DNA of 64,000 bases from an uncultured Gemmatimonadales bacterium (lineage in GTDB: Bacteria > Gemmatimonadota > Gemmatimonadetes > Gemmatimonadales > GWC2-71-9). The notes beneath the pieces are model-generated. The model did not search any database and was not told the DNA's origin. It worked only from the letters and a program-made list of their open reading frames with translations. A program made the translations under genes and the position numbers. Positions 1,997 to 37,137 of the stretch are shown in pieces. Each line of letters opens with the position of its first letter. The first letter of the stretch is position 1. Location: contig CAVYSW010000009.1 of NCBI GenBank assembly GCA_963771275.1, positions 224,001 to 288,000 on the forward strand. Reading direction: 5' to 3'.

Positions 1997-4900
1997 CGCG
2001 GTCATCGCCTGGTCGCTGCGCAACCGGTTCCTGGTGCTGCTGGGGACGCTGTTCCTCGCCGGCGCCGGGGTCTGGGCCATGCGCGCCACGCCCCTCGACG
2101 CGATCCCCGACCTGTCGGACGTGCAGGTGATCGTCCAGACCGACTTCGCCGAGCAGGCGCCGCAGATCGTCGAGGATCAGGTGACGTACCCGGTTGCGAC
2201 CGAGATGCTGAAGGTGCCGGGCGCCCGCGTGGTGCGCGGCTATTCGTTCTTCGGGCTGAGTCTCGTGTACGTGATCTTCGAGGACGGTACGGACCTCTAC
2301 TGGGCGCGCTCCCGCGTCCTCGAGTACTTGAACGGGATCCGCCGCCAGCTCCCGGCCGGCATCGAGCCCGCTCTCGGCCCGGACGCCACCGGCGTGGGCT
2401 GGGTGTTCGAGTACACGCTCGAATCGGACAGTCTCGACCTCGCGCAGCTGCGCAGCCTGCAGGACTGGAACATCCGCTACCAGCTGACCGCCGTGCCGGG
2501 CGTGTCCGAGGTGGCGAGCGTCGGCGGCTTCGTGAAGCAGTACCAGGTGGAGGTGGACCCCGAGCGGCTGCGCGCGTTCAACATCCCCGTCACCCGCGTG
2601 GCGGAGGCCATCGGCGCGCACAACGTCGACATCGGCGCCCGGGTGCTGGAAATGGGCGGGCGCGAGTACATGATCCGCGGGCTGGGCTACCTCCAGGGCA
2701 TCGACGATATCGCCGACGTCACGGTCGGCGCCACGCAGAACGGCACGCCGATCCGTGTCGCCGACGTGGCCACGGTCCAGACCGGACCGGCGCCCCGGCG
2801 CGGCGCCGCCGATCTCGACGGCCGCGGCGAGGTCGTGGCCGGAATCGTCGTGATGCGCTTCGGGTCGGATGCCCTGAAGACCATCGAGGCCGTGAAGGCG
2901 CGCCTCGAGACGGTCCGGGCGGGGCTGCCGCCGGGTGTGCGGCTCCGCACCGCCTACGACCGGAGCGACCTGATCCACCGCGCCATCGCGACGCTGCGCG
3001 GCAAGCTGCTCGAGGAGTCGCTGATCGTGGCGGCCGTCGCGCTGCTGTTCCTGCTGCATGCGCGCTCCGCGCTCGTCGCGATCGTCACGCTGCCCCTCGG
3101 CATCCTGTTCTCGTTCGTGATCATGCGGCTCATCGGGGTGAGCGCCAACATCATGAGCCTGGGCGGCATCGCGATCGCCATCGGCGCCATGGTGGACGCC
3201 GCCATCGTGATGATCGAGAACATGCACAAGCACCTCGAGCGCGCCGGCCCCGACGCCTCGCGCTGGGACATCGTGCTGGCGAGCGCGAAGCAGGTGGGGC
3301 CGCCGTTGTTCTTCTCGCTCCTCGTCATCACGTGCAGCTTCCTGCCGGTGTTCGCGCTCGAGCAGCAGGAGGGCCGCCTCTTCAAGCCGCTCGCCTACAC
3401 CAAGACGTTCGCCATGGCGGGTGCCGCCCTGCTCTCGATCACGCTGGTGCCGGTGCTGATGGGGTATCTCGTCCGGGGAAGGATCCGCGCCGAGCGCGCC
3501 AATCCCGTCAACCGGCTGCTCCAGGGGCTCTATGCCCCGGTCATCCGCTTCACCCTGCATCGGCCCTGGTGGATCATCGGCGGTGCCGTGGCGTTGGTCG
3601 GCGCGACCGCGGTTCCATGGACCCGGCTCGGCAGCGAATTCATGCCACCCCTGCACGAGGGCTCGATCCTGTTCATGCCCACCACCGTGCCCGGCGTGTC
3701 GATCGCGCAGGCGCGCGAGATCATGCGCTACCAGGACAGCGTGCTGGCCTCGTTCCCGGAGGTGGAGCGCGTGCTCGGGAAGGCCGGACGGGCGGAGACC
3801 GCGACCGACCCCGCCCCGCTCGACATGTTCGAGACGACCGTGACGCTCCGGCCGGAGCGGGACTGGCGACCCGGTATGACGTACGACCGGCTCGTGACCG
3901 AGATGGACCGCGCCGTGAAGCTCCCCGGCGTCACGAACGCGTGGACCATGCCGATCAAGGGGCGGATCGACATGCTCGCCACCGGCATCCGCACGCCGGT
4001 GGGGGTCAAGATCTTCGGCCCCAACCTCGACACGCTCCAGGCGCTCGGCGAGCGGGTCGAGCGCGTGCTGCAGCAGGTTCCCGGCACCCGGAGCGCCTTC
4101 GCCGAGCGCGGCGTCTCCGGCTACTACATCGACATCACCATCGATCGGGCGGAGGCCGCGCGCTACGGCTTGAACGCGGGCGACATCCACGCCGCGATCA
4201 TGGCCTCCGTGGGTGGGCTGGACGCCGCCATTACCGTGGAGGGCCGCGAGCGTTACGCCGTGAACGTGCGGTATCCCCGCGAGCTCCGGGACAACGTGCA
4301 GAAGCTGCGCGAGGTGCTTGTGCCCACGATGACCGGCACGCAAGTGCCGCTCGGCCAACTCGCGCGCGTGACCGTCCTCCAGGGGCCGATGGCCGTGAAG
4401 ACCGAGAACGCCTTCCCCGTCTCCACCGTGTTCGTGGACATCGGCCAGCGCGACGTCGGGCGCTACGTGCGCGACGCCCAGGCGGCCGTGGCGCGCACGG
4501 TCGTCCCGCCGACCGGCTATTCCATCGTGTGGAGCGGCCAGTACGAGTTCATGCAGCGGGTGAAGCAGAAGCTCCGACTGGTCGTGCCGGTGACGGTCGC
4601 CATCATCTTCCTGCTGCTGTACCTCAACTTTCGTGGGCTGACGGAATCGGCGATCGTCATGCTGTCGGTTCCGTTCGCGCTCGTGGGCGGGGTCTGGTAC
4701 CTCTGGCTCGCCGGCTACAACACCAGTGTCGCGGTTTGGGTCGGCTTCATCGCACTGGCGGGGGTCGCGGCAGAGACGGGTGTCGTGATGCTGATCTACC
4801 TCGACGAGGCATACCACCGCATGGCGCTCGCGGGAACCATCCACACCGCGGCCGACGTCGGGACGGCGGTGCGTGACGGTGCGGTGGAGCGCCTCCGGCC

Positions 4901-5132
4901 CAAGATCATGACCGTCACGGCCATCATCGCCGGCCTGGCCCCGATCCTCTGGAGCCACGGGACCGGCGCCGACGTGATGAAGCGAATCGCGGCGCCGATG
5001 GTGGGCGGCATGGTCACGTCGACCGTGCTGACGCTGGTCGTGATCCCGGCGATTTACCTGTTGTGGCGGCGGTGGGAGGTGGGGCGGGCGAGCCGCGCAG
5101 CGCCGGCCCCAGGGAGTGAACTGCGCTCTTGA
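1989..5132 (+). CDS. cusA: CusA/CzcA heavy-metal RND permease
   Basis: Starts [14 protein letters not shown] at ATG 1989; [39 protein letters not shown] motifs. Confidence 0.92.
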
Positions 5133-5218
5133 GCCCGATGATCGCCGCGGCGGCGATGAGCTTCAGCTCCGTGTCCGTGATCGGCAACGCGCTCCGGCTG
5201 CGACGGGCCCGGGTGTGA
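5126..5218 (+). pseudogene. C-terminal stub of a Cu-type P1B ATPase (CopA-like)
   Basis: Translates [30 protein letters not shown], the characteristic last TM helix of P1B ATPases; the rest of the gene is absent. Confidence 0.8.
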
Positions 5219-5293
5219 CCGCGTCGGCCCGCGGGGGCCACTGACGGTTCGTGTCGCGGCAGACCTCGCTCATCGCAGCCGCCGGCGTGCCCG

Positions 5294-5357
5294 AATGTCC
5301 GATGATCAATGCCCAATATCCAAGTACTTGGACATTGGCCATTGATCATTGGACCTT
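5294..5357. repeat. Heptamer palindrome H1
   Basis: AATGTCC-GATGATC-AATGCCC-AATATCC / AAGTACTT / GGACATT-GGCCATT-GATCATT-GGACCTT. Confidence 0.9.
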
Positions 5358-5360
5358 TCG

Positions 5361-6062
5361 TCACCGTCCCAACCCCACCGTCACGCCGAGATGGTAGAGG
5401 ATCAGGTTGGTCTGACTCTCGATCGGCGTGTACGTCACGGTGTTCCCCGTGATGGCGATGCTACCCTCGCGCAGGTACCGGGCGCGCCCGTTGTACAGGT
5501 AGCGGGCACCGAGGTCCAGCGACACCGGGAACCGCCCGTGCGAGACTCGGAACCGCACTCCGCCACCCGCCGAGGTCGCGAACGTGAAGTCGTCGAAATT
5601 GGTGGTGTTCGCGAACGGCGCGACGTTCCCGCTCCCCTCGACGGACGACGACGTGACGAAGTACGAGAAGCCCAGCTCACCGTATCCATACACCTGGGCG
5701 GCACCCGTGCCGAGCGTGACCTGGGGACCGAGCTGGAACCCCGCGATCTGATTGTTGGTGGTCACGTCCACGTCCACCAGCGGGACGAGCTGATACCGCC
5801 GCGTCTCGCTTCCATAGATCAGGTAGCTCGCGTCCGCGCGAAGGCCCAGAACGCCGCCCGGCGTCCAGACGGCGTACCCAGCCAGTCCGCCGCCGAGGCC
5901 GACGTAGTTGGCGAACTCGCCCGTGGGCTGTGCCAGCAGCACCGCGAGGCCGAGGTGCGTGTTCGTCGTTCGCACGGGCCTCAAACCCTGCGCCTGCGCC
6001 GCGCTCGCCGTCACGGCCAACACCAGCACCGTTCCCGCGATGACTTTCAGTCCGGTCCTCAT
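5361..6062 (-). CDS. Outer membrane beta-barrel protein
   Basis: GGAGG SD before ATG 6062; signal peptide (..ASAAQA-Q); alternating beta-strand pattern. Confidence 0.7.
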   Translation of the reverse strand: MRTGLKVIAGTVLVLAVTASAAQAQGLRPVRTTNTHLGLAVLLAQPTGEFANYVGLGGGLAGYAVWTPGGVLGLRADASYLIYGSETRRYQLVPLVDVDVTTNNQIAGFQLGPQVTLGTGAAQVYGYGELGFSYFVTSSSVEGSGNVAPFANTTNFDDFTFATSAGGGVRFRVSHGRFPVSLDLGARYLYNGRARYLREGSIAITGNTVTYTPIESQTNLILYHLGVTVGLGR

Positions 6063-6094
6063 ACGGCCTCCTGACGTTCGCGAAGGACCATAAG

Positions 6095-6150
6095 GCAGGA
6101 GGTGTGCCAATGCACATCGCTCGCGCATGGCCTTGTGAATCAATCGGTTA
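6095..6150 (-). promoter_or_regulatory. Sigma54-type promoter with IHF site
   Basis: Minus strand TGGCAC-ACCTC-CTGC (6095-6109); AATCAATCGGTTA (6138-6150) matches WATCAA-N4-TTR; CTGTCC..GGACAG palindrome at 6182-6201. Confidence 0.6.
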
Positions 6151-6266
6151 CCCTGCTGGCCCCGGGTTGACCTCTGTCGTTCTGTCCTCGTTCGGGGACA
6201 GCGCGCCGACGCGAGAGGGTTCCGCGGTGGGCGCTCCTCCACGGACGGGTCGAAGCGCCGCCCGGT

Positions 6267-6932
6267 TCATGGCTTCTCCATCACGAACACGAAAAACGGC
6301 CAGAGCGGAATGCCGATGTACCTGGTGAACAGCGTGCGCGCGCCGGCGCGCTCGAGAGCGGGAAGCACCGAGACCGAACGGCAGCCAAGGGACAGCGTCG
6401 GGAACCGCCACACGACGTCCTCGACGACATTCGCGAGCCACCGCGTCAGGCGGCCCGGGGGCTCCGCCGAGTGCGCGATCCCGATGCGGCCACCGGGCTT
6501 GGCGACCCGCAGGAGCTCCAAGGCGCCGTCCGCCGGCCTGTACAATGGACACATGCTGTAGGTCGAGAGCACGACATCGAAGCTCCCGTCCGCGAACGGC
6601 AGGGCGAGGATATCGCCGGTGCGAAACTCGACGCGCGCGGAGAAACCCGCGGCCGCCACCCGACGTCGGGCCACGGCGAGCATGCCCTCGCTGGCGTCGA
6701 GCGCCGTGACGCTCCCCGATGGCCCGACCTGCGATGCCGCGAGCAGCGCGGTCGACCCCGTGCCCGCGCCGCAGTCCAGCACACGGTCGCCCGCCCGTAC
6801 GGCCTGCTCCACCAGCAGTCGGCGTCCTCGTTGATCCGAGCGGGCAGTCAGGACCCCGTGCTGAAGGTCGTAGCGCTGCGCCACGCGGTCGTACACCGTC
6901 TTCAGCGTCTGTGGATCGAGTCCCTCCCGCAT
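6267..6932 (-). CDS. Class I SAM-dependent methyltransferase (UbiE-like)
   Basis: VLDCGAGTG motif I, LDASEGML, LPFADGSFD; GGAGGAG SD before ATG 6932. Confidence 0.85.
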   Translation of the reverse strand: MREGLDPQTLKTVYDRVAQRYDLQHGVLTARSDQRGRRLLVEQAVRAGDRVLDCGAGTGSTALLAASQVGPSGSVTALDASEGMLAVARRRVAAAGFSARVEFRTGDILALPFADGSFDVVLSTYSMCPLYRPADGALELLRVAKPGGRIGIAHSAEPPGRLTRWLANVVEDVVWRFPTLSLGCRSVSVLPALERAGARTLFTRYIGIPLWPFFVFVMEKP

Positions 6933-7048: not shown

Positions 7049-7149
7049 TCCCCGCAACGCCAATCGCCCCAGCCACTTGCCGAAGCCGCGCCGAATTTCC
7101 GTTACCCACGTCACGGCGCCGCACCCCCCGCCGGTGACTTCGTGTACCC

Positions 7150-8172
7150 GTGCCGATGCCTCTACCCGCTCCGCCCGGACCGGCGCGACGACGTGCGCGG
7201 TCTCAGCGGTGCAGCCACTGGTGCGTCATCACGTGGCTGGTCGCGCTCCCGGCCTGCGCGCCGGCGGTTCCCACCGACCTCGTGTGGGTCGAGATCCCAG
7301 AGGGCGCGCCGGTCGAAGCCGTGGCGGAGTCGCTCGCCGTGCACGGCATCGTTCCCTCGGCTGAAGGGTTCGTGCGCCTCGCGCGATACGACGGCCAGTA
7401 CCGCGATATCAAGCCCGGGCTCTATCCCCTGCCGCCACGCATGGGCCGGTACAACGCGCTATCCACCCTGCTCAAGGGTGTCGGACGGGTGCGGGTCATC
7501 GAGGTGCGGGAGCGGATGACGCTGATCGAGCTGGCTGACGCGCTGGTACAAACCCTCGGGGTGGGGCGCGCAGAGGTGCTGGCGGCCGCGAGCGATTCCG
7601 CGCTCCGCGCCCAGGTGGGCGCGGCGGGCCCGACCATCGAGGGGTATCTGTTCCCCACGACCTACCATGTGCCCTTCGACGCGTCGGTGCCGGTAATCCT
7701 CGGCCAGATGGCGGACACCTTCGAGGCGCGCTGGCGGCCCGCCTGGAACGCGCGCCTCGACACGCTCGGGCTCTCGCGTGACCAGGTGGTGATCCTCGCC
7801 TCGATCATCGCGGGGGAGATGCCGCTCGGCGACGAGCGCTTCCAGGTGGCGTCGATGTACCACAACCGGCTCGCCCGCCGGATGCGGCTCCAGGCTGACC
7901 CCACGGTGGTCTACACGCTGGGCGAGCGTCGTCGCCTGACCTTTGCGGATTACCGCGTCGCGTCGGACTACAACACGTACACGATCAACGGCCTTCCGCC
8001 CGGCCCCATCGGGCAGCCGTCCACCGAGAGTCTCGAGGCCGCGCTCTACCCGGCGACGACCGATTTCCTGTACATGGTGGCCGGGCCCGACGGGTCCCAC
8101 GCGTTCTCGCGCACGTACGTTGAGCACCTGCGGACGATTCGGGAGATCCGGGGCGGGGGGAGAGGGCGGTGA
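7150..8172 (+). CDS. mltG: Endolytic transglycosylase MltG
   Basis: EGYLFPTTY, LASII.GE, RLQADPTV.Y, YNTY..GLPPGPI motifs; start uncertain. Confidence 0.88.
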   Translation: MPMPLPAPPGPARRRARSQRCSHWCVITWLVALPACAPAVPTDLVWVEIPEGAPVEAVAESLAVHGIVPSAEGFVRLARYDGQYRDIKPGLYPLPPRMGRYNALSTLLKGVGRVRVIEVRERMTLIELADALVQTLGVGRAEVLAAASDSALRAQVGAAGPTIEGYLFPTTYHVPFDASVPVILGQMADTFEARWRPAWNARLDTLGLSRDQVVILASIIAGEMPLGDERFQVASMYHNRLARRMRLQADPTVVYTLGERRRLTFADYRVASDYNTYTINGLPPGPIGQPSTESLEAALYPATTDFLYMVAGPDGSHAFSRTYVEHLRTIREIRGGGRGR

Positions 8173-8175
8173 TCG

Positions 8176-8213
8176 AATGCTCAATGTTCAATGCTCAATG
8201 TTCAATGTTCAAT
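8176..8213. repeat. Heptamer arm H3a (left-type)
   Basis: AATGCTC-AATGTTC-AATGCTC-AATGTTC-AATGTTC-AAT starting 4 nt after the mltG stop. Confidence 0.9.
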
Positions 8214-8327
8214 ACTGGTTTCCAGGTATCCGGCATCGAGTCCCAGGATTGAGTCGTGGGATTCGAATTGCGCTGCCTCGCAGCACTTTGGTGATGCACG
8301 AGGGCACGGTCGCCCCAGAGTTGGGGC

Positions 8328-8699
8328 ATGGCTCCGCGTCGGTACGATCTGGAGGATCGCCTGCTCGCGTTTGCGATCTCCGCGTCTCGCCTCACGACTG
8401 CCTTTCCGCCCAGCATGGTGGGCCGGCACGCCGGGCTACAGCTGATTCGATCTGCGACATCTCCGGCCGCCAACTATGCGGAAGCCGTGGCGGCGGAGTC
8501 CCGCCGCGATTTCGTACACAAGCTCCGCATCTGTCTCAAGGAGCTGCGCGAGGTGCGCATCTGGCTCCGGTTCGTTGTGGGAGTCGAACTCGCTCCGAGC
8601 GCGGCTGTCGTGGGAGCGGGTCGCGAATGCGATGAGCTGATCGCGATCCTCGCCGCCTCCATCAGGACGGCGAAAGGCAGAGCGTCAAGCGATCAATGA
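8328..8699 (+). CDS. Four helix bundle protein (23S rRNA IVS protein / Avd-like family)
   Basis: DLEDRL..FA, QLIRSATS..ANYAEA..AESRRDFVHKL.I.LKE.RE...WL signature; 123 aa. Confidence 0.9.
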   Translation: MAPRRYDLEDRLLAFAISASRLTTAFPPSMVGRHAGLQLIRSATSPAANYAEAVAAESRRDFVHKLRICLKELREVRIWLRFVVGVELAPSAAVVGAGRECDELIAILAASIRTAKGRASSDQ

Positions 8700-27253: not shown

Positions 27254-28003
27254 ATGCGATTCATGAACAAGGTCGTGCTGATCACCGGCGGCACCCGGGG
27301 CGTCGGGCTGGCCACCGCCCGGGCATTCGCCCAGGAGGGTGCCAGCGTCGTGATCACGGGGCTCGACGCGGCACGCGGCCGCGAGGCGGCGGGCATGGTC
27401 CTCCGAGCCACGTTCATGGAGGGCGACGTCCGGGTCGCGGCCGACTGCGGCCGCGTGGTTGCAGACACCACGAAGCGACTCGGACGACTCGACGTGCTCG
27501 TCAACAACGCGGGCGTGATCTATCGCAACCGCACGGTCGAGCAGACGACCGACGACGAGTGGGACACGACGTTCGCGACCAACGTGAAGGGCGCGTTCTT
27601 CATGAGCCGGAGCGCCCTGCCCGCCCTGCGCGCGACCACGGGCAACATCGTGAGTGTCGCGTCATACGCCGGCCTTGTGGGATTCGCGGGGGCGGCGGCC
27701 TACGCGGCGTCCAAGGCCGCCCTGGTGAACCTCACGCGCACGATGGCGCTCGACCACGCGGGCGAGGGCATCCGCGTCAACTGCGTATGTCCGGGGAGCG
27801 TCGAGACCGACATGATCTACCAGGCCTGGCAGGCGTTTCCCGACCCGGAGGCGGCGCGGCACCGGTGGGAGGAGAAGCACCCGCTCGGCCGGATCGCCAC
27901 CCCCGACGAGGTCGCCAAGGGGATCCTGTTCCTCGCGTCGGACGACGCGGCGTTCATCACCGGCGTCGCCCTGCCGGTGGATGGAGGGATCACGGCGGCC
28001 TGA
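27254..28003 (+). CDS. SDR family oxidoreductase
   Basis: TGGTRGVG, NNAG, YAASK, PLGR motifs. Confidence 0.92.
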   Translation: MRFMNKVVLITGGTRGVGLATARAFAQEGASVVITGLDAARGREAAGMVLRATFMEGDVRVAADCGRVVADTTKRLGRLDVLVNNAGVIYRNRTVEQTTDDEWDTTFATNVKGAFFMSRSALPALRATTGNIVSVASYAGLVGFAGAAAYAASKAALVNLTRTMALDHAGEGIRVNCVCPGSVETDMIYQAWQAFPDPEAARHRWEEKHPLGRIATPDEVAKGILFLASDDAAFITGVALPVDGGITAA

Positions 28004-28021
28004 ACCGGCGCCGCGCGCGCC

Positions 28022-28051
28022 TTGACGCCGCGCGCGTCGGCGGCTTACCGT
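28022..28051 (+). promoter_or_regulatory. Sigma70-like promoter for riboswitch 1
   Basis: TTGACG-18 nt-TACCGT just upstream of the aptamer. Confidence 0.5.
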
Positions 28052-28068
28052 TCGCCAAGTCGCAGTCA

Positions 28069-28148
28069 GGCGATGGAGTTCGCCGTACAACCGCCGCCAT
28101 GCCGAAGGCGGCTGATGACTCCTGTCACCCTTTGGGTCGGCAGGAGTT
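28069..28148 (+). ncRNA. Fluoride (crcB) riboswitch 1, translational ON switch
   Basis: GGCGATGGAGTTCGCC...AACCGCC...GGCTGATGACTCCTGT; aptamer 3' ACTCCTG can pair with CAGGAGT, which holds the SD of ATG 28154. Confidence 0.92.
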
Positions 28149-28153
28149 CTTGC

Positions 28154-29872
28154 ATGTCAGCAACCCTGACCGTCACCTGCGTGGTGCCCGACGCGCTGGA
28201 TCGCCTCCGCCACCTCGCCACGACCGCCGGTGCGCCCGACATCGCGGCCGAGGCGCGGGAGCTCGCCGAGCGCGCCGCCGCCGGCCGCTTCTACGTGGTC
28301 TGCATCGGGCAGTTCAAGCGCGGGAAATCCACCCTGATCAACACGCTGCTGGATGACGATCTGCTCCCGACCGGCGTGCCGCCGGTCACCTCGGTGCCGA
28401 CGATCGTGCGGGCCGGCGAGCGCAGCGCCCGCGTGCGGACCGCTGAGGGCTGGCAACCCGTCCCGATCGAGGAGCTGGGGCGCTACGTGTCGGAGGACGG
28501 CAACCCCGGCAATGTGCAGCGGGTGCTCGCCGTCGAGGTGTTCTCGTCGAGCCCCCTCCTCGCCGGCGGCCTGTGCCTGGTGGATACGCCCGGCCTGGGC
28601 TCGGTCATCGAAGCCAATTCGGCGGCGACCCGCGAGTTCCTCCCGCACGTGGACGCGGCCATCGCGGTGCTCGGCGTCGATCCGCCGGTCTCGGCGGAGG
28701 AGATGGCGTTCCTCGCGGAAACCGCCCGGCAGGCGGACACCATCGTGTTCGTGCTGAACAAGGCCGATCACCTGCCCCCCGGCGAGCGGGCGGCCGCCGT
28801 CGCGTTCACGGAGCGCGTGCTCACCGAGCGGCTCGGACGGCCCCCGGATCGGCTCTACCAGGTGAGCGCGCTTCCCAGCAAGCGGACACCGGAGAGCGAC
28901 GCCGAGTGGGCCGCGCTGGTGGAGCGGCTCCGTGGCCTGCCGGACGCGGCGGGCGATCGCCTGCTGGACGCCGCCGCGCGCCGCGGGGTAGCCCGCCTTG
29001 GCGGCCGCCTGCGCTGGGCACTCGACGAAGAGCGGCGGGCGCTGCTCGCGCCGGTCCAGGAGGCCGAGACCCGCGCCGCCACGTTGCGTGACCTCGCGGC
29101 CGACGCCGACCGCGCGCTCGGCGACCTCGGCCCGTTGCTCGCCGCGGAGCACCAGCGTCTGGGCCGCGCCTTCGTCACCGCCCGCGAGGACTTCCTTGCG
29201 CGGGCTCGTCCGGCCGCGCGCCAGGACCTGGATCGACGGCTCCCGGCGGCCGCCGATCGGAGGCCGCCAAGTCGCGCGGTCGCCCTGGACCTCGCATGTC
29301 AGACGGCCCGCGAGCACCTCGAACCCTGGCTCCGGGAGGCGGAACAGCAGGCGTTGCGCGCGTACGTCACGGCGACGGCCCGCTTCACGAGCATCGCGCA
29401 CGCGTTGCTCAAGCAGCTGACGGCGGCGGCCGGCGTCACGCCGGACGGCTGGAGTGCGGACGACCTCGTGCCCGCGGGCCTCTCCGCCCCGCCGCGGTTC
29501 TACTTCGCGGGGCGCATGGCCTACCACTACCCGAGCGCCCCATGGGCGGCGTGGCTCACCGACCGGCTCACGCCGCGGGGCCCGCGCGGGCGCCGGGTCC
29601 GCGCGGCCGCCGGGGCGTACCTCGAGGATCTGCTGAGCGTCAACGCGGAACGGGTCAAGAACGACCTGGATCAGCGCGTCCTGGAAAGCCGGCGGCAGTT
29701 CGAGTTCCGATTCCGCCGCGTGCTCGGCACGATCGTCCGTTTGGCGTCCGAGTCGCTCGAGCGTGCCCGGACGCATGGCGAAGGGCTCCCGCATGAACGT
29801 CCGCAGGAGCCATCAGCCGGCCCGGACGCCGGCGGTTTTCGGTGGGCCCCATCACCTTCGGCGGGATTCTAA
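28154..29872 (+). CDS. Dynamin-family GTPase (C-terminus runs into riboswitch 2)
   Basis: G1 GQFKRGKS, G2 PVT, G3 DTPG, G4 NKAD, helical C-terminal half; SD AGGAG at 28142. Confidence 0.88.
   Translation: MSATLTVTCVVPDALDRLRHLATTAGAPDIAAEARELAERAAAGRFYVVCIGQFKRGKSTLINTLLDDDLLPTGVPPVTSVPTIVRAGERSARVRTAEGWQPVPIEELGRYVSEDGNPGNVQRVLAVEVFSSSPLLAGGLCLVDTPGLGSVIEANSAATREFLPHVDAAIAVLGVDPPVSAEEMAFLAETARQADTIVFVLNKADHLPPGERAAAVAFTERVLTERLGRPPDRLYQVSALPSKRTPESDAEWAALVERLRGLPDAAGDRLLDAAARRGVARLGGRLRWALDEERRALLAPVQEAETRAATLRDLAADADRALGDLGPLLAAEHQRLGRAFVTAREDFLARARPAARQDLDRRLPAAADRRPPSRAVALDLACQTAREHLEPWLREAEQQALRAYVTATARFTSIAHALLKQLTAAAGVTPDGWSADDLVPAGLSAPPRFYFAGRMAYHYPSAPWAAWLTDRLTPRGPRGRRVRAAAGAYLEDLLSVNAERVKNDLDQRVLESRRQFEFRFRRVLGTIVRLASESLERARTHGEGLPHERPQEPSAGPDAGGFRWAPSPSAGF
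29783..29856 (-). ncRNA. Fluoride riboswitch 2 (antisense to the dynamin gene)
   Basis: Minus strand GGTGATGGGGCCCACC-GAAAACC-GCCGGC..GCCGGC-TGATGGCTCCTGC; GGCTCCTGC can pair with GCGGGAGCC (SD) ahead of ATG 29776. Confidence 0.85.
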
Positions 29873-29894
29873 GCCAGCCCGTTCGGGCGGTCAA
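29866..29894 (-). promoter_or_regulatory. Sigma70 promoter for riboswitch 2
   Basis: TTGACC-17 nt-TAGAAT. Confidence 0.8.
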
Positions 29895-29916
29895 TCGCCG
29901 GGCGATGGCGGGAGAT

Positions 29917-29940
29917 CGTGCAGCGTGCGGCGTGCAGCGT
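29917..29940. repeat. CGTGCAG heptamer tract
   Basis: CGTGCAG-CGTGCGG-CGTGCAG-CGT just past the DUF456 stop. Confidence 0.6.
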
Positions 29941-29947
29941 CGGGGGC

Positions 29948-30454
29948 TCAGAGGCGCAGCATTGCCACCACGCCCAGCACGGCGATGACCAGGCCGAGGG
30001 CGACCTTCGCCGCCGCGCCGACCGCCCGCCCAAGCACGGCGCCCCATCCCGCGCTCACCGCCGCGCCGCCGGCCCGTGCAACCGTGTACTCGCCCAGCGT
30101 GGCACCGGCAAACGAGCCGGCGAACGCGCCGATCACGCTGCCGACGATCGGCACCGGCACGCCGACCACCGCACCGACGATCCCGCCCACCAGCGCGCCC
30201 CAGCCCGCGCGCCGCGATCCCCCGTAGCGCCGCGCGTACCGGAAGCCCGCCCACGCCTCGATGATCTCGCCGGCCATGGCCAGCCCGACGACGAGCGCGA
30301 TCGTGGCGATGCCCACCGACGCGAAGCCGGTGAGCCAGCCGAAGCCGATCACCCCCAGCACCATCAGCCACAGGCCCGGCAGGCCAAGCGGCACGAGGGC
30401 GAGGCCGACGGCGAGGACGGCGCCGAGCAGCAGCCCGGCAAGCAGCGCGGACAT
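29948..30454 (-). CDS. DUF456 family membrane protein
   Basis: LGLPGLW, A.RYGGSRRA.WGA.VGG.VG, G.FAGA.LGE. Confidence 0.85.
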   Translation of the reverse strand: MSALLAGLLLGAVLAVGLALVPLGLPGLWLMVLGVIGFGWLTGFASVGIATIALVVGLAMAGEIIEAWAGFRYARRYGGSRRAGWGALVGGIVGAVVGVPVPIVGSVIGAFAGSFAGATLGEYTVARAGGAAVSAGWGAVLGRAVGAAAKVALGLVIAVLGVVAMLRL

Positions 30455-30491
30455 GTGCGGCGATCAGCTCGTCAAGTGTACCTTCGGCGGG

Positions 30492-30520
30492 ATTCTATCG
30501 GCGCCCGCTCAGGTGGTCAA
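30492..30520 (-). promoter_or_regulatory. Sigma70 promoter (paralogous to the 29.87-kb copy)
   Basis: TTGACC-17 nt-TAGAAT; 18-nt block 30480-30497 identical to 29854-29871. Confidence 0.8.
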
Positions 30521-30632
30521 TCGCTGGCAGAGTCGGTGCCGGCGCGTAGCTTAGAGGTGTCCGCCACCCCCCGGCCGCGCTGCGGCGTCCTGGGGCGTAC
30601 GGATGGACCAGGCAACCGGGGGTAGCGCCACC

Positions 30633-33779: not shown

Positions 33780-34415
33780 TCAGGCCGTCTGCGCTTGCAG
33801 CTTGAACACCCCCGCCGCGAGCGCACCGCCCGCGAGGGGTCCCACCAGGTAGAGCCACGCATCCGCCAGCGATCCGCCGCCCAGCGCCACGTTGACCAGG
33901 ATCGGGCCGACGCCCACGGCCGGGTTGAACGCGCCGCCCGAGATCGGCCCGCCGGCGAAGGCGGCGACCACGATCGTGAAGCCGATGGCGAGCCCGTAGT
34001 ACGAGTTGCCCGCCGTCTTCTCCGATGTGGCGGTCTGCAGCACGACCAGGACCAGCGCGAACGTGAACAGCGCCTCGGCGAGGAACGCCCCCAGCGTCGT
34101 GCTGCCGAGTCCCGGCTCGGGCGCGAATGCGTGCCCGGCGATCACGTTGACGACGAGGGCAGCGACGATGGCGCCGGCCAGCTGGGTCACGAAGTACGCG
34201 CCGAAGTCCTTCGCGGTGAGCTTGCCGCGGAGCCACACGCCGAGCGAGACGGCGGGGTTGTAGTGACCGCCCGAGATGTGCCCGCCCATGTACACCATGA
34301 TCATGAGCGACGAGCCGATCGCGAGGGGGGCGAACTCCGTGCCACTGACTACCGTGAGCCCGACGGTGAGGACGAGGAAGAACGTGCCGATGAACTCGGT
34401 GAGCAGCTTCGCCAT
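33780..34415 (-). CDS. Aquaporin (MIP family)
   Basis: TEFIGTF, SGGHYNPAV, EALFTF, SGGAFNPAV. Confidence 0.92.
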   Translation of the reverse strand: MAKLLTEFIGTFFLVLTVGLTVVSGTEFAPLAIGSSLMIMVYMGGHISGGHYNPAVSLGVWLRGKLTAKDFGAYFVTQLAGAIVAALVVNVIAGHAFAPEPGLGSTTLGAFLAEALFTFALVLVVLQTATSEKTAGNSYYGLAIGFTIVVAAFAGGPISGGAFNPAVGVGPILVNVALGGGSLADAWLYLVGPLAGGALAAGVFKLQAQTA

Positions 34416-34444
34416 GGAATGATCTCCGTTTGAGTCCAGACAAC

Positions 34445-34825
34445 CTACGCGTCGATCTCCCAGTCCGCGGCGCGCGCCCCGGGAGGCAGCTCCGGCCGGT
34501 ACATGATGACGCGCGCCCGTTCGAGCGTGATGAGGCCGCCGCCGATCATCTCGTCCAGCAGCGGCAGGATCTCCTGGATCTTCTCCTCCGTCTCCACGCA
34601 CTCCACCACGATCGGCAGGTCGAGCGACAGCAGCTCGATGCGGTCGGTCCGCAGCCGGGCGCTGGCCCCGAAACCGAGAATCGCGCGGAACACCGTCGCG
34701 CCCGCGAAGTGCCGCTCGCGCAGCAGGTCCACGATCGCCTGGTAGAGCGGTTTCCCCTGGTACTTGTCGCGCTCGCCGAGGTGGATCCGCATCAGGGTCC
34801 GCTCGCCCTTGAATCCGTGCATCAT
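34445..34825 (-). CDS. DUF190 (PII-like) protein
   Basis: GE.D.Y.GKPLY, GATVFR...GFG, LSLDLP; the usual crcB neighbour. Confidence 0.88.
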   Translation of the reverse strand: MMHGFKGERTLMRIHLGERDKYQGKPLYQAIVDLLRERHFAGATVFRAILGFGASARLRTDRIELLSLDLPIVVECVETEEKIQEILPLLDEMIGGGLITLERARVIMYRPELPPGARAADWEIDA

Positions 34826-34837
34826 TTGCCCCCTCCC

Positions 34838-35215
34838 TCAGGCCGCCAGCAGGCGGCGCGCGGCGTCGAAGCCGGCGAGCATGGCGGCGAGCGACAGCAG
34901 GACGCTCGCCAGGACGTAGATGGCGACCCGGCGATAATCCCCGTCCTGCAGCAGGGTCGCGGTCTCGTAGCTGAACGTGGAGAACGTGGTGTAGCCGGCG
35001 CAAAACCCGGTGGTGAGCAGCGCCCGCAGCTCGGGCGAGATCGCCGGCGTCGCCAAGGCGTACCGCATCAGGAACCCGAGGAGCAGCGACCCGGTGACAT
35101 TGACCACCAGCGTGCCGACCGGGAAGTCCACGGCGGCCCGCTGCTGGATGAACGTGCCGAGCAGGTAGCGGGTCGCGCCACCCAGCGCACTGCCCACCGC
35201 GACGTACCAGATCAT
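34838..35215 (-). CDS. crcB: Fluoride channel Fluc/CrcB
   Basis: GGATRY, FPVGTLVVN, GFCAGYTTFSTFS.E; ATG 35215. Confidence 0.93.
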   Translation of the reverse strand: MIWYVAVGSALGGATRYLLGTFIQQRAAVDFPVGTLVVNVTGSLLLGFLMRYALATPAISPELRALLTTGFCAGYTTFSTFSYETATLLQDGDYRRVAIYVLASVLLSLAAMLAGFDAARRLLAA

Positions 35216-35261
35216 CGAGCTGCCCTCCGCACGGCACCGTCCCTGAGTCAAGGTGTCGGAC

Positions 35262-35290
35262 GGAATAGCACCCACCTGCGTCCCGGTCAA
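35262..35290 (-). promoter_or_regulatory. Candidate sigma70 promoter of crcB operon
   Basis: TTGACC-17 nt-TATTCC. Confidence 0.5.
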
Positions 35291-35310
35291 GGGACGCTCG
35301 TGGTTGCACG

Positions 35311-37137
35311 ATGGGGCCTGCCTGCCGAATATCCGGTGTGCCCGAGCCAGCCCGGTCCACCTCGGAACTGCTCCTCACCCGACCGGCGCGTGCGCTGCAG
35401 GAATCCGCCCGCGCCGTCTCCGGCACCCTGACCGCGATGGGGAGCGACGAGCACACCCAGCTCCTCGTCCTGGCGGTGGTGATCGGCACGGCGTCCGGCG
35501 CCGCCGTCATCGTCTTCTACAAGGCGATCGACCTGATTCAGGGCCTGGTGCTGCACAGCGCGCTGCGCATGCCGATCCCCGCCCCCCTGCTGATCCCGCT
35601 GTTCGTGGCGCTCGGCCTGATGGCCTGCCGCGCGCTCGTCCGCTGGGGCGCCAACGGCTCGCCCGGAGAGAACATCCCCGACGTGATGTACCGGGTGACG
35701 GTCAAGGGCGGGGTGATCCGCTCGATCCCCGTGCTGGTCAAGACCCTCGCGGCCGCGGTCGTGATCGGCACCGGCGGCTCGGTCGGGGCCGAGGGCCCGG
35801 TCGTCGTGCTCGGTGCCGCGGCGGGGTCGCGCATCGGCCGGTGGCTCCGCGCCTCGCCCAACCGCCTGCGGACCCTGGTGGGCTGCGGCGCCGCCGCCGG
35901 CATCTCCGCCGCGTTCAACGCGCCCATCGCGGGCGTGCTGTTCGGCATCGAGAAGATCCTCGGCGCGGCCGGCGGCATGGCACTGGGACCGTTCGTGGTC
36001 GCCTCCATCCTCGCCGCCACGGTCGGCCGCAGCGTGTTCGGCAACCACCCGGTGATGGCGCTCCCCACGGAGTTCGGCGTGGGCGCCCCCTGGGAGCTGC
36101 TGCTGTACGTCGGTCTCGGCGTGCTCACGGGCGTCGTGTCGGTGCTGTACTCGCGCAGCGTGTGGCGGGCCCAGGACCTGTTCGCCCGGCTGCGCGCGCG
36201 CTGGTTGCAGGTCGCGCTGGGCGCGGCGGTGATCGGAGGACTCGACATTGCGTTCCGGAGCGATCTGTGGGGCCAGGGCCACGAGAGCCTCGACATCGGC
36301 ATCGTGGCGACCCGCAGCGCGTTGTTCCTGCTCGCGCTGGCGGGCGCCAAGCTGGTGGCCACGGCCGCGACGTTCGGCGCGGGTGGCGCCGGCGGCGTGT
36401 TCACGCCCGCGCTGTTCATCGGCGCGACCCTGGGCGGCGCGTACGGCGTCGCGATGCACGGCGTGATCCCGAACGCCGACTTCGCGCCGGGCGCGCTCGC
36501 CCTAGTGGGGATGGCAGGCCTGGTGGCGGGATCCACCCATGCGCCACTCACCGCGATCATGATGGTGTTCGAGATGACCGGGGACTACGGCCTGATCCTC
36601 CCGCTGATGCTCACCAGCGTCCTCGCGTACGGCATCGCCCGCCGGCTCCATCCCGAGTCGATCTACACCGAATGGCTGGTGCGCCGCGGCGTGGTGCTGT
36701 CGAACGGCGCGGACGCCGCCGTGCTGGCGCGCCTCCCCGTGCAGGAGTGCATCAACCGGCAGCCGCTGGTGATTCCGGAAGCCGCCGACCTTCCGGCGAT
36801 CGTGCAGCGGATCGGCGAGAGCCGGCAGACCGACTTCCCGGTGGTGGACGACGGCGGCCGCCTCGTCGGCATGCTGTCCCACGCGACGGTCCGCGAGGCG
36901 ATGGAGGGCCGCGACCAGCTCGGCGGGATTCTGCTCGCGGCCGACCTCGCCCTTCCGGACGCGGAGCCCGTCACCGCGGAGGACACGCTGCTCACCGCGC
37001 TCCGCCGGCTCGGCAAGCGGGACGTCAACGTCTTGCCCGTGGTCGTGGCCGGCGACCGCGAGCGGCTCGACGGCACCGTGAGCCGGCAGGACCTGATGGC
37101 CGCGTACGAGCGGGCGCTGACCTCGGAGGGACATTGA
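35311..37137 (+). CDS. CLC-family anion transporter with CBS pair
   Basis: GGSVGAEGP, AAFNAP.AG, GGVFTP, SIY, C-terminal CBS domains; start may be GTG 35338. Confidence 0.92.
   Translation: MGPACRISGVPEPARSTSELLLTRPARALQESARAVSGTLTAMGSDEHTQLLVLAVVIGTASGAAVIVFYKAIDLIQGLVLHSALRMPIPAPLLIPLFVALGLMACRALVRWGANGSPGENIPDVMYRVTVKGGVIRSIPVLVKTLAAAVVIGTGGSVGAEGPVVVLGAAAGSRIGRWLRASPNRLRTLVGCGAAAGISAAFNAPIAGVLFGIEKILGAAGGMALGPFVVASILAATVGRSVFGNHPVMALPTEFGVGAPWELLLYVGLGVLTGVVSVLYSRSVWRAQDLFARLRARWLQVALGAAVIGGLDIAFRSDLWGQGHESLDIGIVATRSALFLLALAGAKLVATAATFGAGGAGGVFTPALFIGATLGGAYGVAMHGVIPNADFAPGALALVGMAGLVAGSTHAPLTAIMMVFEMTGDYGLILPLMLTSVLAYGIARRLHPESIYTEWLVRRGVVLSNGADAAVLARLPVQECINRQPLVIPEAADLPAIVQRIGESRQTDFPVVDDGGRLVGMLSHATVREAMEGRDQLGGILLAADLALPDAEPVTAEDTLLTALRRLGKRDVNVLPVVVAGDRERLDGTVSRQDLMAAYERALTSEGH

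Follow-up and report, generated by a model that had tools for sequence, protein, structure and literature searches.

We analyzed a stretch of DNA of 64,000 nucleotides (nt), hereafter the window, from an uncultured Gemmatimonadales bacterium (positions 224,001 to 288,000 of contig CAVYSW010000009.1, assembly GCA_963771275.1). The genome (G000; 3.86 Mb, 70.3% GC) is assembled in 11 contigs, with 0.01% contamination. A scan of the window with the Rfam covariance models (cmscan, gathering thresholds) gave three matches: two to the fluoride riboswitch family RF01734 (gathering cut-off, 34 bits) and one tRNA. The two aptamers lie 1.7 kb apart, on opposite strands, and converge on an open reading frame (ORF) encoding a dynamin-like GTPase. 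This arrangement had been proposed from the letters of the DNA alone in an earlier note (hereafter the original prediction), and the covariance scores of 51.1 and 49.0 bits bear it out. One further RF01734 match was obtained in the whole genome, on contig C3. An SDR gene (+ strand) is located upstream of the first riboswitch (RS1), and a gene for a DUF456 membrane protein (29948-30454, - strand; Pfam DUF456, 1.6e-24) adjoins the module of the second riboswitch (RS2) on its upstream side.

The RS1 aptamer (28060-28131, + strand) matched positions 1-64 of the 64 positions of the model (51.1 bits, E = 3e-11) and ends 23 nt before the ATG at 28154 of the dynamin-like gene, in its 5' leader and on the same strand. 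The 3' tail of the aptamer, ACUCCUG, can pair with the Shine-Dalgarno (SD) sequence CAGGAGU in a predicted hairpin (28117-28148) that precedes this ATG. The minimum free energy (MFE) fold of a 56-nt piece had a stability of -28.4 kcal/mol (z = -4.31), and none of 200 shuffled sequences was equally stable; the folding tool, used for the platforms of both riboswitches, does not represent the aptamer pseudoknot. The hairpin covers the SD sequence, as expected if RS1 sequesters it in the manner originally predicted. RS1 would thus be an ordinary translational ON switch for the GTPase: fluoride binding would keep the aptamer tail in the pseudoknot, thereby freeing the SD sequence of the ATG at 28154. 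RS1 and RS2 resemble known RF01734 switches in matching the covariance model end to end and, like the translational members of the family, in having an aptamer 3' tail that is predicted to pair with the SD sequence as an alternative to entering the pseudoknot. RS1 also resembles them in its position in the 5' untranslated region of the gene that it faces. RS1 differs from them in facing a dynamin-like GTPase gene rather than crcB or eriC-F, and RS2 in having no gene of its own in this assembly.

The + strand ORF (28022-29872), with its in-frame ATG at 28154 and its stop codon at 29870-29872, encodes a protein of 572 residues (P0001). A Pfam Dynamin_N domain was identified at residues 48-203 (4.8e-23; 82.5 bits, against a cut-off of 27), with the P-loop GQFKRGKST at residues 52-60. 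The nearest solved chains by sequence were IniA (6j72, 9.1e-17), 5owv (5.2e-15) and 2j68 (1.8e-8), the likeness being confined to the GTPase domain (query residues ~19-209). With this domain and a length of ~570 residues, the protein is similar to the bacterial dynamin-like proteins IniA, Campylobacter DLP1/2 and Nostoc BDLP, from which the window copy differs in lacking the conserved C-terminal helix, and its clade in recurring in fluoride-type neighbourhoods. Orthologues from three related genomes (42-47% identity) aligned with P0001 only over residues ~10-540, and all three have a conserved helical segment of 33-37 residues beyond this point. In an alignment of nine sequences, the helical tail was present in all eight relatives, the window protein having instead a Pro/Gly-rich stretch of 32 residues. 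P0003 (566 residues), encoded on a contig of 3569 nt in another assembly, shares 98% identity with P0001 across 94% of the latter; after T540, P0003 continues with a 30-residue tail like those of P0004, P0005 and P0007 (77-79% identical). The GC content at third codon positions (GC3) fell from 0.909 in codons 1-540 (28154-29773) to 0.594 in codons 541-572 (29774-29872, including the stop codon), which read through the reverse complement of the RS2 module. Codon 541 is CAT (29774-29776), the reverse complement of the ATG that follows RS2, and the native dynamin gene therefore ends at 29773. Together, these comparisons of sequence indicate that codons 541-572 are foreign to the original dynamin gene.

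The RS2 aptamer (29797-29865, - strand; 49.0 bits, E = 1.5e-10, model positions 1-64) lies on the opposite strand within the 3' end of this ORF, the location originally described for it. The other elements ascribed to RS2 were also found: a promoter-like site, an intact aptamer, a predicted anti-SD hairpin and a start codon. In the MFE fold, the aptamer tail GGCUCCUGCG pairs with UGCGGGAGCC, which contains the SD sequence, in a predicted 10-bp hairpin (29784-29811) that is not exceptional for the local GC content (z = -1.16, with 23 of 200 shuffled sequences as stable). The SD sequence, GGGAG (29790-29786), lies 9 nt ahead of the ATG (29774-29776, - strand). A promoter-like site, TTGACC-17-TAGAAT (site A; 29866-29894, - strand), matching the consensus at 10 of 12 positions, abuts the aptamer. 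A promoter scan of positions 27500-30600 identified two sites, against 0.1 expected from shuffled sequences. Both have the structure TTGACC-17-TAGAAT and both are on the - strand, the second (site B) being located at 30520-30492, in front of the DUF456 gene, which it presumably drives. Sites A and B form part of a direct repeat of 48 nt with 81% identity (copy A, 29854-29901; copy B, 30480-30527), copy B being a partial copy of site A and of the first 12 nt of the RS2 transcript. The copies are identical in the -35 region GCGATTGACC and over an 18-nt block comprising TAGAAT and these 12 transcribed nt, with agreement at only about half the positions of the 17-nt spacer; the exact 18-mer was found at these two places only in the 3.86-Mb genome. 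As copy B includes these 12 leader nt, we also considered whether the DUF456 gene was once under riboswitch control. This possibility was rejected: the homology between A and B does not extend beyond GAAGGT, and relatives lack a riboswitch at this position (no match at the DUF456 loci of 18 relatives). Synteny around DUF456 was uninformative, the neighbours not being kept even within the genus. On the + strand, the complement of the RS2 P3 stem (29816-29842) forms a GC hairpin with GGTTTTCGG after it. No other terminator-like site was identified in 27500-30600; this one is located upstream of the stop codon, in the non-native part of the dynamin ORF.

The structure of the locus in other strains was investigated with contigs from four public runs (X1, X2, X3 and X7, from four studies) aligned with positions 27900-30600. 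In all four runs, the contigs stop matching or change partner at the junction 29773/29774, the break falling exactly at 29773, which is thus a structural breakpoint among near-identical strains. One X1 contig (3569 nt, the same length as the contig encoding P0003) carries the SDR gene, RS1 and the dynamin gene and matches positions 27900-29773, with 11 differences and a 12-nt gap, before continuing with 174 unlike letters. A second X1 contig (2425 nt) consists of 301 unlike letters, a match to positions 29773-30476 and then divergent sequence; this strain departs from the window exactly at the inner edge of repeat copy B. The gap, at 28232, corresponds to four residues fewer (APDI) near the N-terminus of the dynamin-like protein and is an in-frame indel. 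In X2 and X3, a contig links 28011 to 29773 through 129 other letters, with RS1 and the dynamin gene absent; the order is SDR gene, 129 nt, then the ATG, SD sequence, RS2, promoter A and the DUF456 gene. A third run may share this lack of RS1 and dynamin. A short X7 contig has 31 other letters followed by a match from 29773 onward. For X2, X3 and X7, the comparison draws on those stretches that a contig covers or joins across.

Relatives provide a possible model for the ancestral layout. Contig C204 of G021, from the same family and another genus, contains two convergent RF01734 aptamers 4.9 kb apart. The first (3453-3521, + strand) heads a Na/H exchanger gene, a USP gene and a dynamin gene (about 5097-6896), all on the + strand; the second (8382-8444, - strand) heads, on the - strand, a gene for a small protein of an unnamed family (7885-8358; hereafter family X), CrcB (7499-7888) and DUF190 (7070-7477). 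As in the window, two fluoride aptamers face each other across a cluster with an orthologous dynamin gene (47% identity), but every unit of the G021 cluster keeps its genes, whereas the RS2 unit of the window is empty and its aptamers are only 1.7 kb apart. The window therefore looks like a collapsed version of the G021 layout. We conclude that the locus is probably the remnant of two convergent fluoride riboswitch units, in which RS2 was orphaned by a deletion of about 0.5 kb that took family X and the dynamin tail. The original prediction had offered such a deletion as one of two explanations, and it is this one that the non-native tail, the breakpoint at 29773 and the intervening genes of relatives support. 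The ancestral order was probably SDR, RS1 and full-length dynamin on the + strand, facing family X, RS2, promoter A and DUF456 on the - strand. RS2, built like RS1, would have controlled the small family X gene from the ATG at 29776, its native start. The deletion, of roughly 0.5 kb, would extend between dynamin codon 541 and family X codon 2, such that family X was lost except for its start codon and the dynamin gene was left without its 30 final native codons. The dynamin frame would then read 32 codons through the reverse complement of the RS2 module, and the RS2 promoter, SD sequence and ATG would face the dynamin antisense strand. RS1 should still turn on translation of the C-terminally altered protein in response to fluoride. 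In X1, the two unlike stretches (174 and 301 letters, 475 together) correspond in length to a dynamin tail of 93 nt, stop codon included, plus a family X gene of about 400 nt. The X2/X3 form would have arisen by a separate deletion, which began at 28012 and reached family X at about codon 44. Conspecific strains show no fewer than three structural forms of the locus, which together provide a dated, stepwise example of riboswitch orphaning.

To assess the identity of the lost gene, RF01734 was searched for in 41 genomes of this taxonomic family. Thirteen genomes contained the element, with 24 matches listed, and we examined what lies behind 23 of these matches, including the three of G000. Family X lies directly behind the aptamer at five of these 23 loci (L051, L053, L056, L058 and L062), as four proteins of 134-157 residues and one 92-residue form, with good mutual alignment. 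Profile searches gave 89 and 33 members (P0123-P0216 among the proteins noted), with a typical size of 130-160 residues, and those carrying names come only from Gemmatimonadales metagenome-assembled genomes (MAGs). The family is characterized by an N-terminal motif with an invariant Q and R, followed by a central VEDLRARR..YG..LDP block. No Pfam domain or informative name was found among the members returned by the profile searches, NCBIfam gave no family, and a Protein Atlas search with family X yielded unnamed clusters only, the best score, 0.84, being too low to count as a match. The link to RS2 is made by X7: 30 letters of its short contig (record 21), read on the - strand from the ATG at 29776, form 10 sense codons with no stop. 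They agree with 7 of the first 11 residues of the family X member P0150, including the invariant Q6 and R8 and the near-invariant L2, and they share the pattern LSxGQxRH with the G021 member. DUF190, suggested as the lost gene by the layout of locus L031, was not supported: positions 1900-2087 of L031, scanned with Rfam at permissive settings, gave no fluoride match, only four chance-level matches to other families, and the X7 letters fit family X instead. A profile hidden Markov model of family X gave no match in the six-frame translation of G000 (best E = 0.18); the gene is absent from the genome as assembled. On the basis of its position behind the aptamers, family X is a candidate new fluoride-response protein.

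Several observations weigh against a deletion of this kind. Layouts differ among relatives: L031, the closest metagenomic relative (75% identity), has an intact dynamin tail and, downstream of it, a convergent DUF190 gene in the place of family X, and no fluoride aptamer was seen in the 70 nt of sequence that the contig offers upstream of DUF190. A family X protein from the 2425-nt X1 contig was not returned by either profile search (89 and 33 hits), and the presence of a whole family X gene in the intact haplotype, for which the lengths, the 10 codons and the synteny in another genus argue, is best regarded as presumptive. In addition, none of the four public runs bridges the 29773/29774 junction of the window, and the chimeric P0001 is on record solely from the window's own contig, of 460,881 nt. 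These last two points, and the break of all four runs exactly there, would also be expected if the living genome were intact, with a full dynamin tail, family X and RS2, and the assembler had wrongly joined 29773 to 29774. Public samples contain at least two other haplotypes, and metagenome assemblers do make errors when such variants occur together. However, neither of the haplotypes deduced above provides a path from dynamin codon 540 to the ATG at 29776. Both, as reconstructed, carry the first ~43 codons of family X, which the window lacks, and their mixing would therefore not yield the join observed. The genome is in 11 contigs with 0.01% contamination, and no run stands out among the four as the source sample: the best-matching run contained 0.74 of the words, with the 11 letter differences and the 12-nt gap. 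We therefore consider an assembly artefact unlikely, and the orphaning of RS2 less likely to be due to an assembly join than to a deletion in the living strain.

The events might also have run in the opposite direction, with a dynamin-less strain of the X2/X3 type gaining a 3'-truncated RS1-dynamin cassette by illegitimate recombination, in place of the stub of the RS2 gene. The part missing from the X2/X3 contigs corresponds exactly to 28012-29772, whose left edge is 8 nt past the stop codon of the SDR gene and whose right edge is at the ATG. Moreover, the dynamin gene was found in none of the six same-genus genomes searched, which are only 71-89% complete. Nevertheless, the SDR-RS1-dynamin left junction is shared by a near-identical strain (X1, P0003) whose dynamin tail is complete, so a full-length resident copy existed. 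Furthermore, the 129 letters behind the ATG in X2/X3 are too short for a 130-residue family X gene, so the X2/X3 form is itself likely to be a deletion product. A gain of this type thus seems highly improbable.

The deletion reading leaves RS2 with the dynamin antisense strand, and no real gene leader, downstream of its ATG. On this strand, the original prediction reported a stop-free frame of about 540 codons ending at 28157, and such a frame was found (28157-29794, - strand; 545 codons from an ATG at 29794 and 539 from the ATG at 29776, in the same frame). It is codon-aligned with the dynamin gene and has no sign of being a gene. Its product is Arg/Gly-rich with no Pfam match, and its GC content at the three codon positions (0.905/0.542/0.782) mirrors that of the sense gene. 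Antisense stops in this frame require TTA, CTA or TCA in the sense strand, and these codons together account for 0.21% of codons in 1288 proxy genes of G000, giving a probability of about 0.32 that 540 codons contain none of them. A fully open aligned antisense frame was found in 188 of 446 G000 genes of 450-700 codons. The caveat of the original prediction, that a codon-aligned antisense frame is expected to be open in GC-rich DNA, is therefore well founded: the open frame is expected by chance and provides no evidence of a gene.

The other explanation originally offered for this arrangement was a fluoride-gated sense/antisense circuit in which translation protects the antisense RNA. On such a reading, RS2 would have been kept or exapted so that fluoride turns on translation of the antisense frame, this translation would shield the RNA from Rho, and convergent transcription or RNA duplexes would tune dynamin. 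Its elements are in place: the promoter is near-consensus, the aptamer, SD-sequestering hairpin and ATG are intact, and the scan of 27500-30600 showed no terminator-like site on the - strand. The intactness of promoter A, aptamer, SD sequence and ATG is indeed a further point against a non-functional remnant, as a functional module would be expected to look the same. We attribute it to the recency of the event rather than to selection, because the flanks in other strains differ by only 0-11 letters and because the module is identical or nearly so in strains in which it appears to head a protein gene. Riboswitch-controlled antisense RNAs exist for other ligands: the B12 riboswitch controls AspocR in Listeria, and an S-box controls an antisense RNA in Clostridium acetobutylicum. 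In both cases, the arrangement is conserved, and a non-coding RNA is regulated at the level of termination. The window is similar to them in that a ligand-sensing leader heads a transcript antisense to a neighbouring gene, but differs in that its arrangement is unique to one assembly and its SD-sequestering platform appears to be inherited from a protein-coding unit. No aptamer embedded antisense in a dynamin 3' end was found at the other loci read, comprising four orthologous whole-genome loci (L005, L006, L007 and L064) and 18 collection loci (L031-L048), nor in five close homologues with tails read. In relatives, intervening genes are found between the dynamin gene and the convergent riboswitch, an observation that the original prediction itself had regarded as counting against a circuit. 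The antisense product, with its mirrored codon-position GC and lack of a family match, has no coding signature, and the RS2 module seems to descend without change from an arrangement where it drives the expression of a protein. Both switches would be turned on by the same ligand, with no obvious logic, and the same event cost the dynamin gene its conserved C-terminal helix. A functional circuit is thus very unlikely, and the arrangement is most likely a scar, the product of ordinary genome decay. The literature search returned no report of a fluoride-riboswitch antisense RNA among the matches listed, as judged by their titles or the opening of their abstracts.

A scar of this kind may still produce RNA. 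The RS2 promoter should send transcripts antisense into the dynamin gene, and fluoride should open the RS2 SD sequence, such that the antisense frame would be translated; we view any such output at present as a by-product of the deletion rather than as a selected circuit. We judge it very improbable that the deletion is real and that the orphaned RS2 has come to drive, under the control of fluoride, antisense transcription and translation across the truncated dynamin-like gene. If true, this would be a case of natural capture of a riboswitch into an antisense regulator, with a de novo frame of 539 codons translated only with fluoride.

The association of fluoride riboswitches with dynamin-like GTPases was not limited to the window. 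Two collection scans gave the 18 dynamin-like loci mentioned above, eight of which (L037, L039, L040, L041, L042, L044, L047 and L048) have a same-strand RF01734 match no more than about 170 nt ahead of the aligned N-terminus; L039, L040 and L047 had identical scores and may be one population. No such match was present at six loci (L032, L033, L035, L036, L038 and L046), and four (L031, L034, L043 and L045) are without a 5' flank. In whole genomes, an aptamer lies directly upstream of dynamin at L006 (G018) and L064 (G062), and at the operon head of the dynamin cluster in G021 and G027. The association, with a riboswitch or a fluoride operon, was thus seen in Gemmatimonadales relatives, Acidimicrobiales MAGs and metagenome contigs. 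A Pfam run on 55 of the 86 ORFs picked around dynamin-like genes, those closest to them, identified DUF190 directly upstream of dynamin at L035, L036 and L038, as did reading of L007. Other neighbours were enolase (L035 and L037), MFS (L037, L038 and L048), CrcB (L005 and L035) and NADH-dehydrogenase-type subunits (L047 and L009), and a MutS-like gene was found behind a divergent second aptamer at L042. DUF190, CrcB, enolase, MFS, MutS-like and NADH-dehydrogenase-type genes are typical members of fluoride regulons. At L035, L036 and L038, DUF190 overlaps the dynamin start by about 20 nt, which suggests that they form a translationally coupled pair.

A full-text literature search retrieved no link between a fluoride riboswitch and dynamin or a dynamin-like protein; the gene tables of the 2012 fluoride-riboswitch work lay outside this search, and a mention there is possible. 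Likewise, no paper was found for a fluoride riboswitch with DUF190, and nothing relevant for a fluoride riboswitch with a GTPase among the matches listed, judging from the listing itself. Among the genes mentioned in the passages on the crcB motif in PMC2864571 and PMC7266159 are mutS, formate hydrogen lyase and transporters of K+ and Cl-; no dynamin appears there. What appears to be new, judging from gene neighbourhoods, is therefore the regulon membership of this clade of dynamin-like GTPases and of family X, the riboswitch pair itself being an element of a known kind in a decayed arrangement. If the link holds, membrane remodelling or repair would be a testable arm of the fluoride stress response.

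Other fluoride-related features were observed in G000 and its relatives. The third fluoride riboswitch of G000 (C3:1449234-1449293, - strand; L003 1501-1560; 40.8 bits) is followed by an ORF of 136 residues (L003 1067-1477, - strand) with no Pfam or NCBIfam match. Its N-terminus resembles that of a riboswitch-linked ORF in G018 (L067), and it may represent a second unnamed riboswitch-associated family. The window also contains, at 33780-37137, crcB (34838-35290), DUF190 (~34508-34795) and a MIP-type channel gene (~33780-34440), all on the - strand, and a divergent gene for a CLC channel with CBS domains (35311-37137, + strand). The Rfam scan detected no fluoride riboswitch at this operon or at the CLC gene, and the main fluoride exporters of G000 thus appear to be without riboswitch control. 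In L042, a low-GC metagenome contig, two aptamers lie back to back and divergent, 60 nt apart (2379-2438, - strand, and 2500-2558, + strand), one facing an ORF and then the MutS-like gene, the other facing the dynamin-like gene. Finally, contig C38 of G062 (L064, L066, L068 and L070) carries four fluoride aptamers within 18 kb, one directly upstream of the dynamin orthologue and two as a divergent pair 80 nt apart, and looks like a fluoride island.

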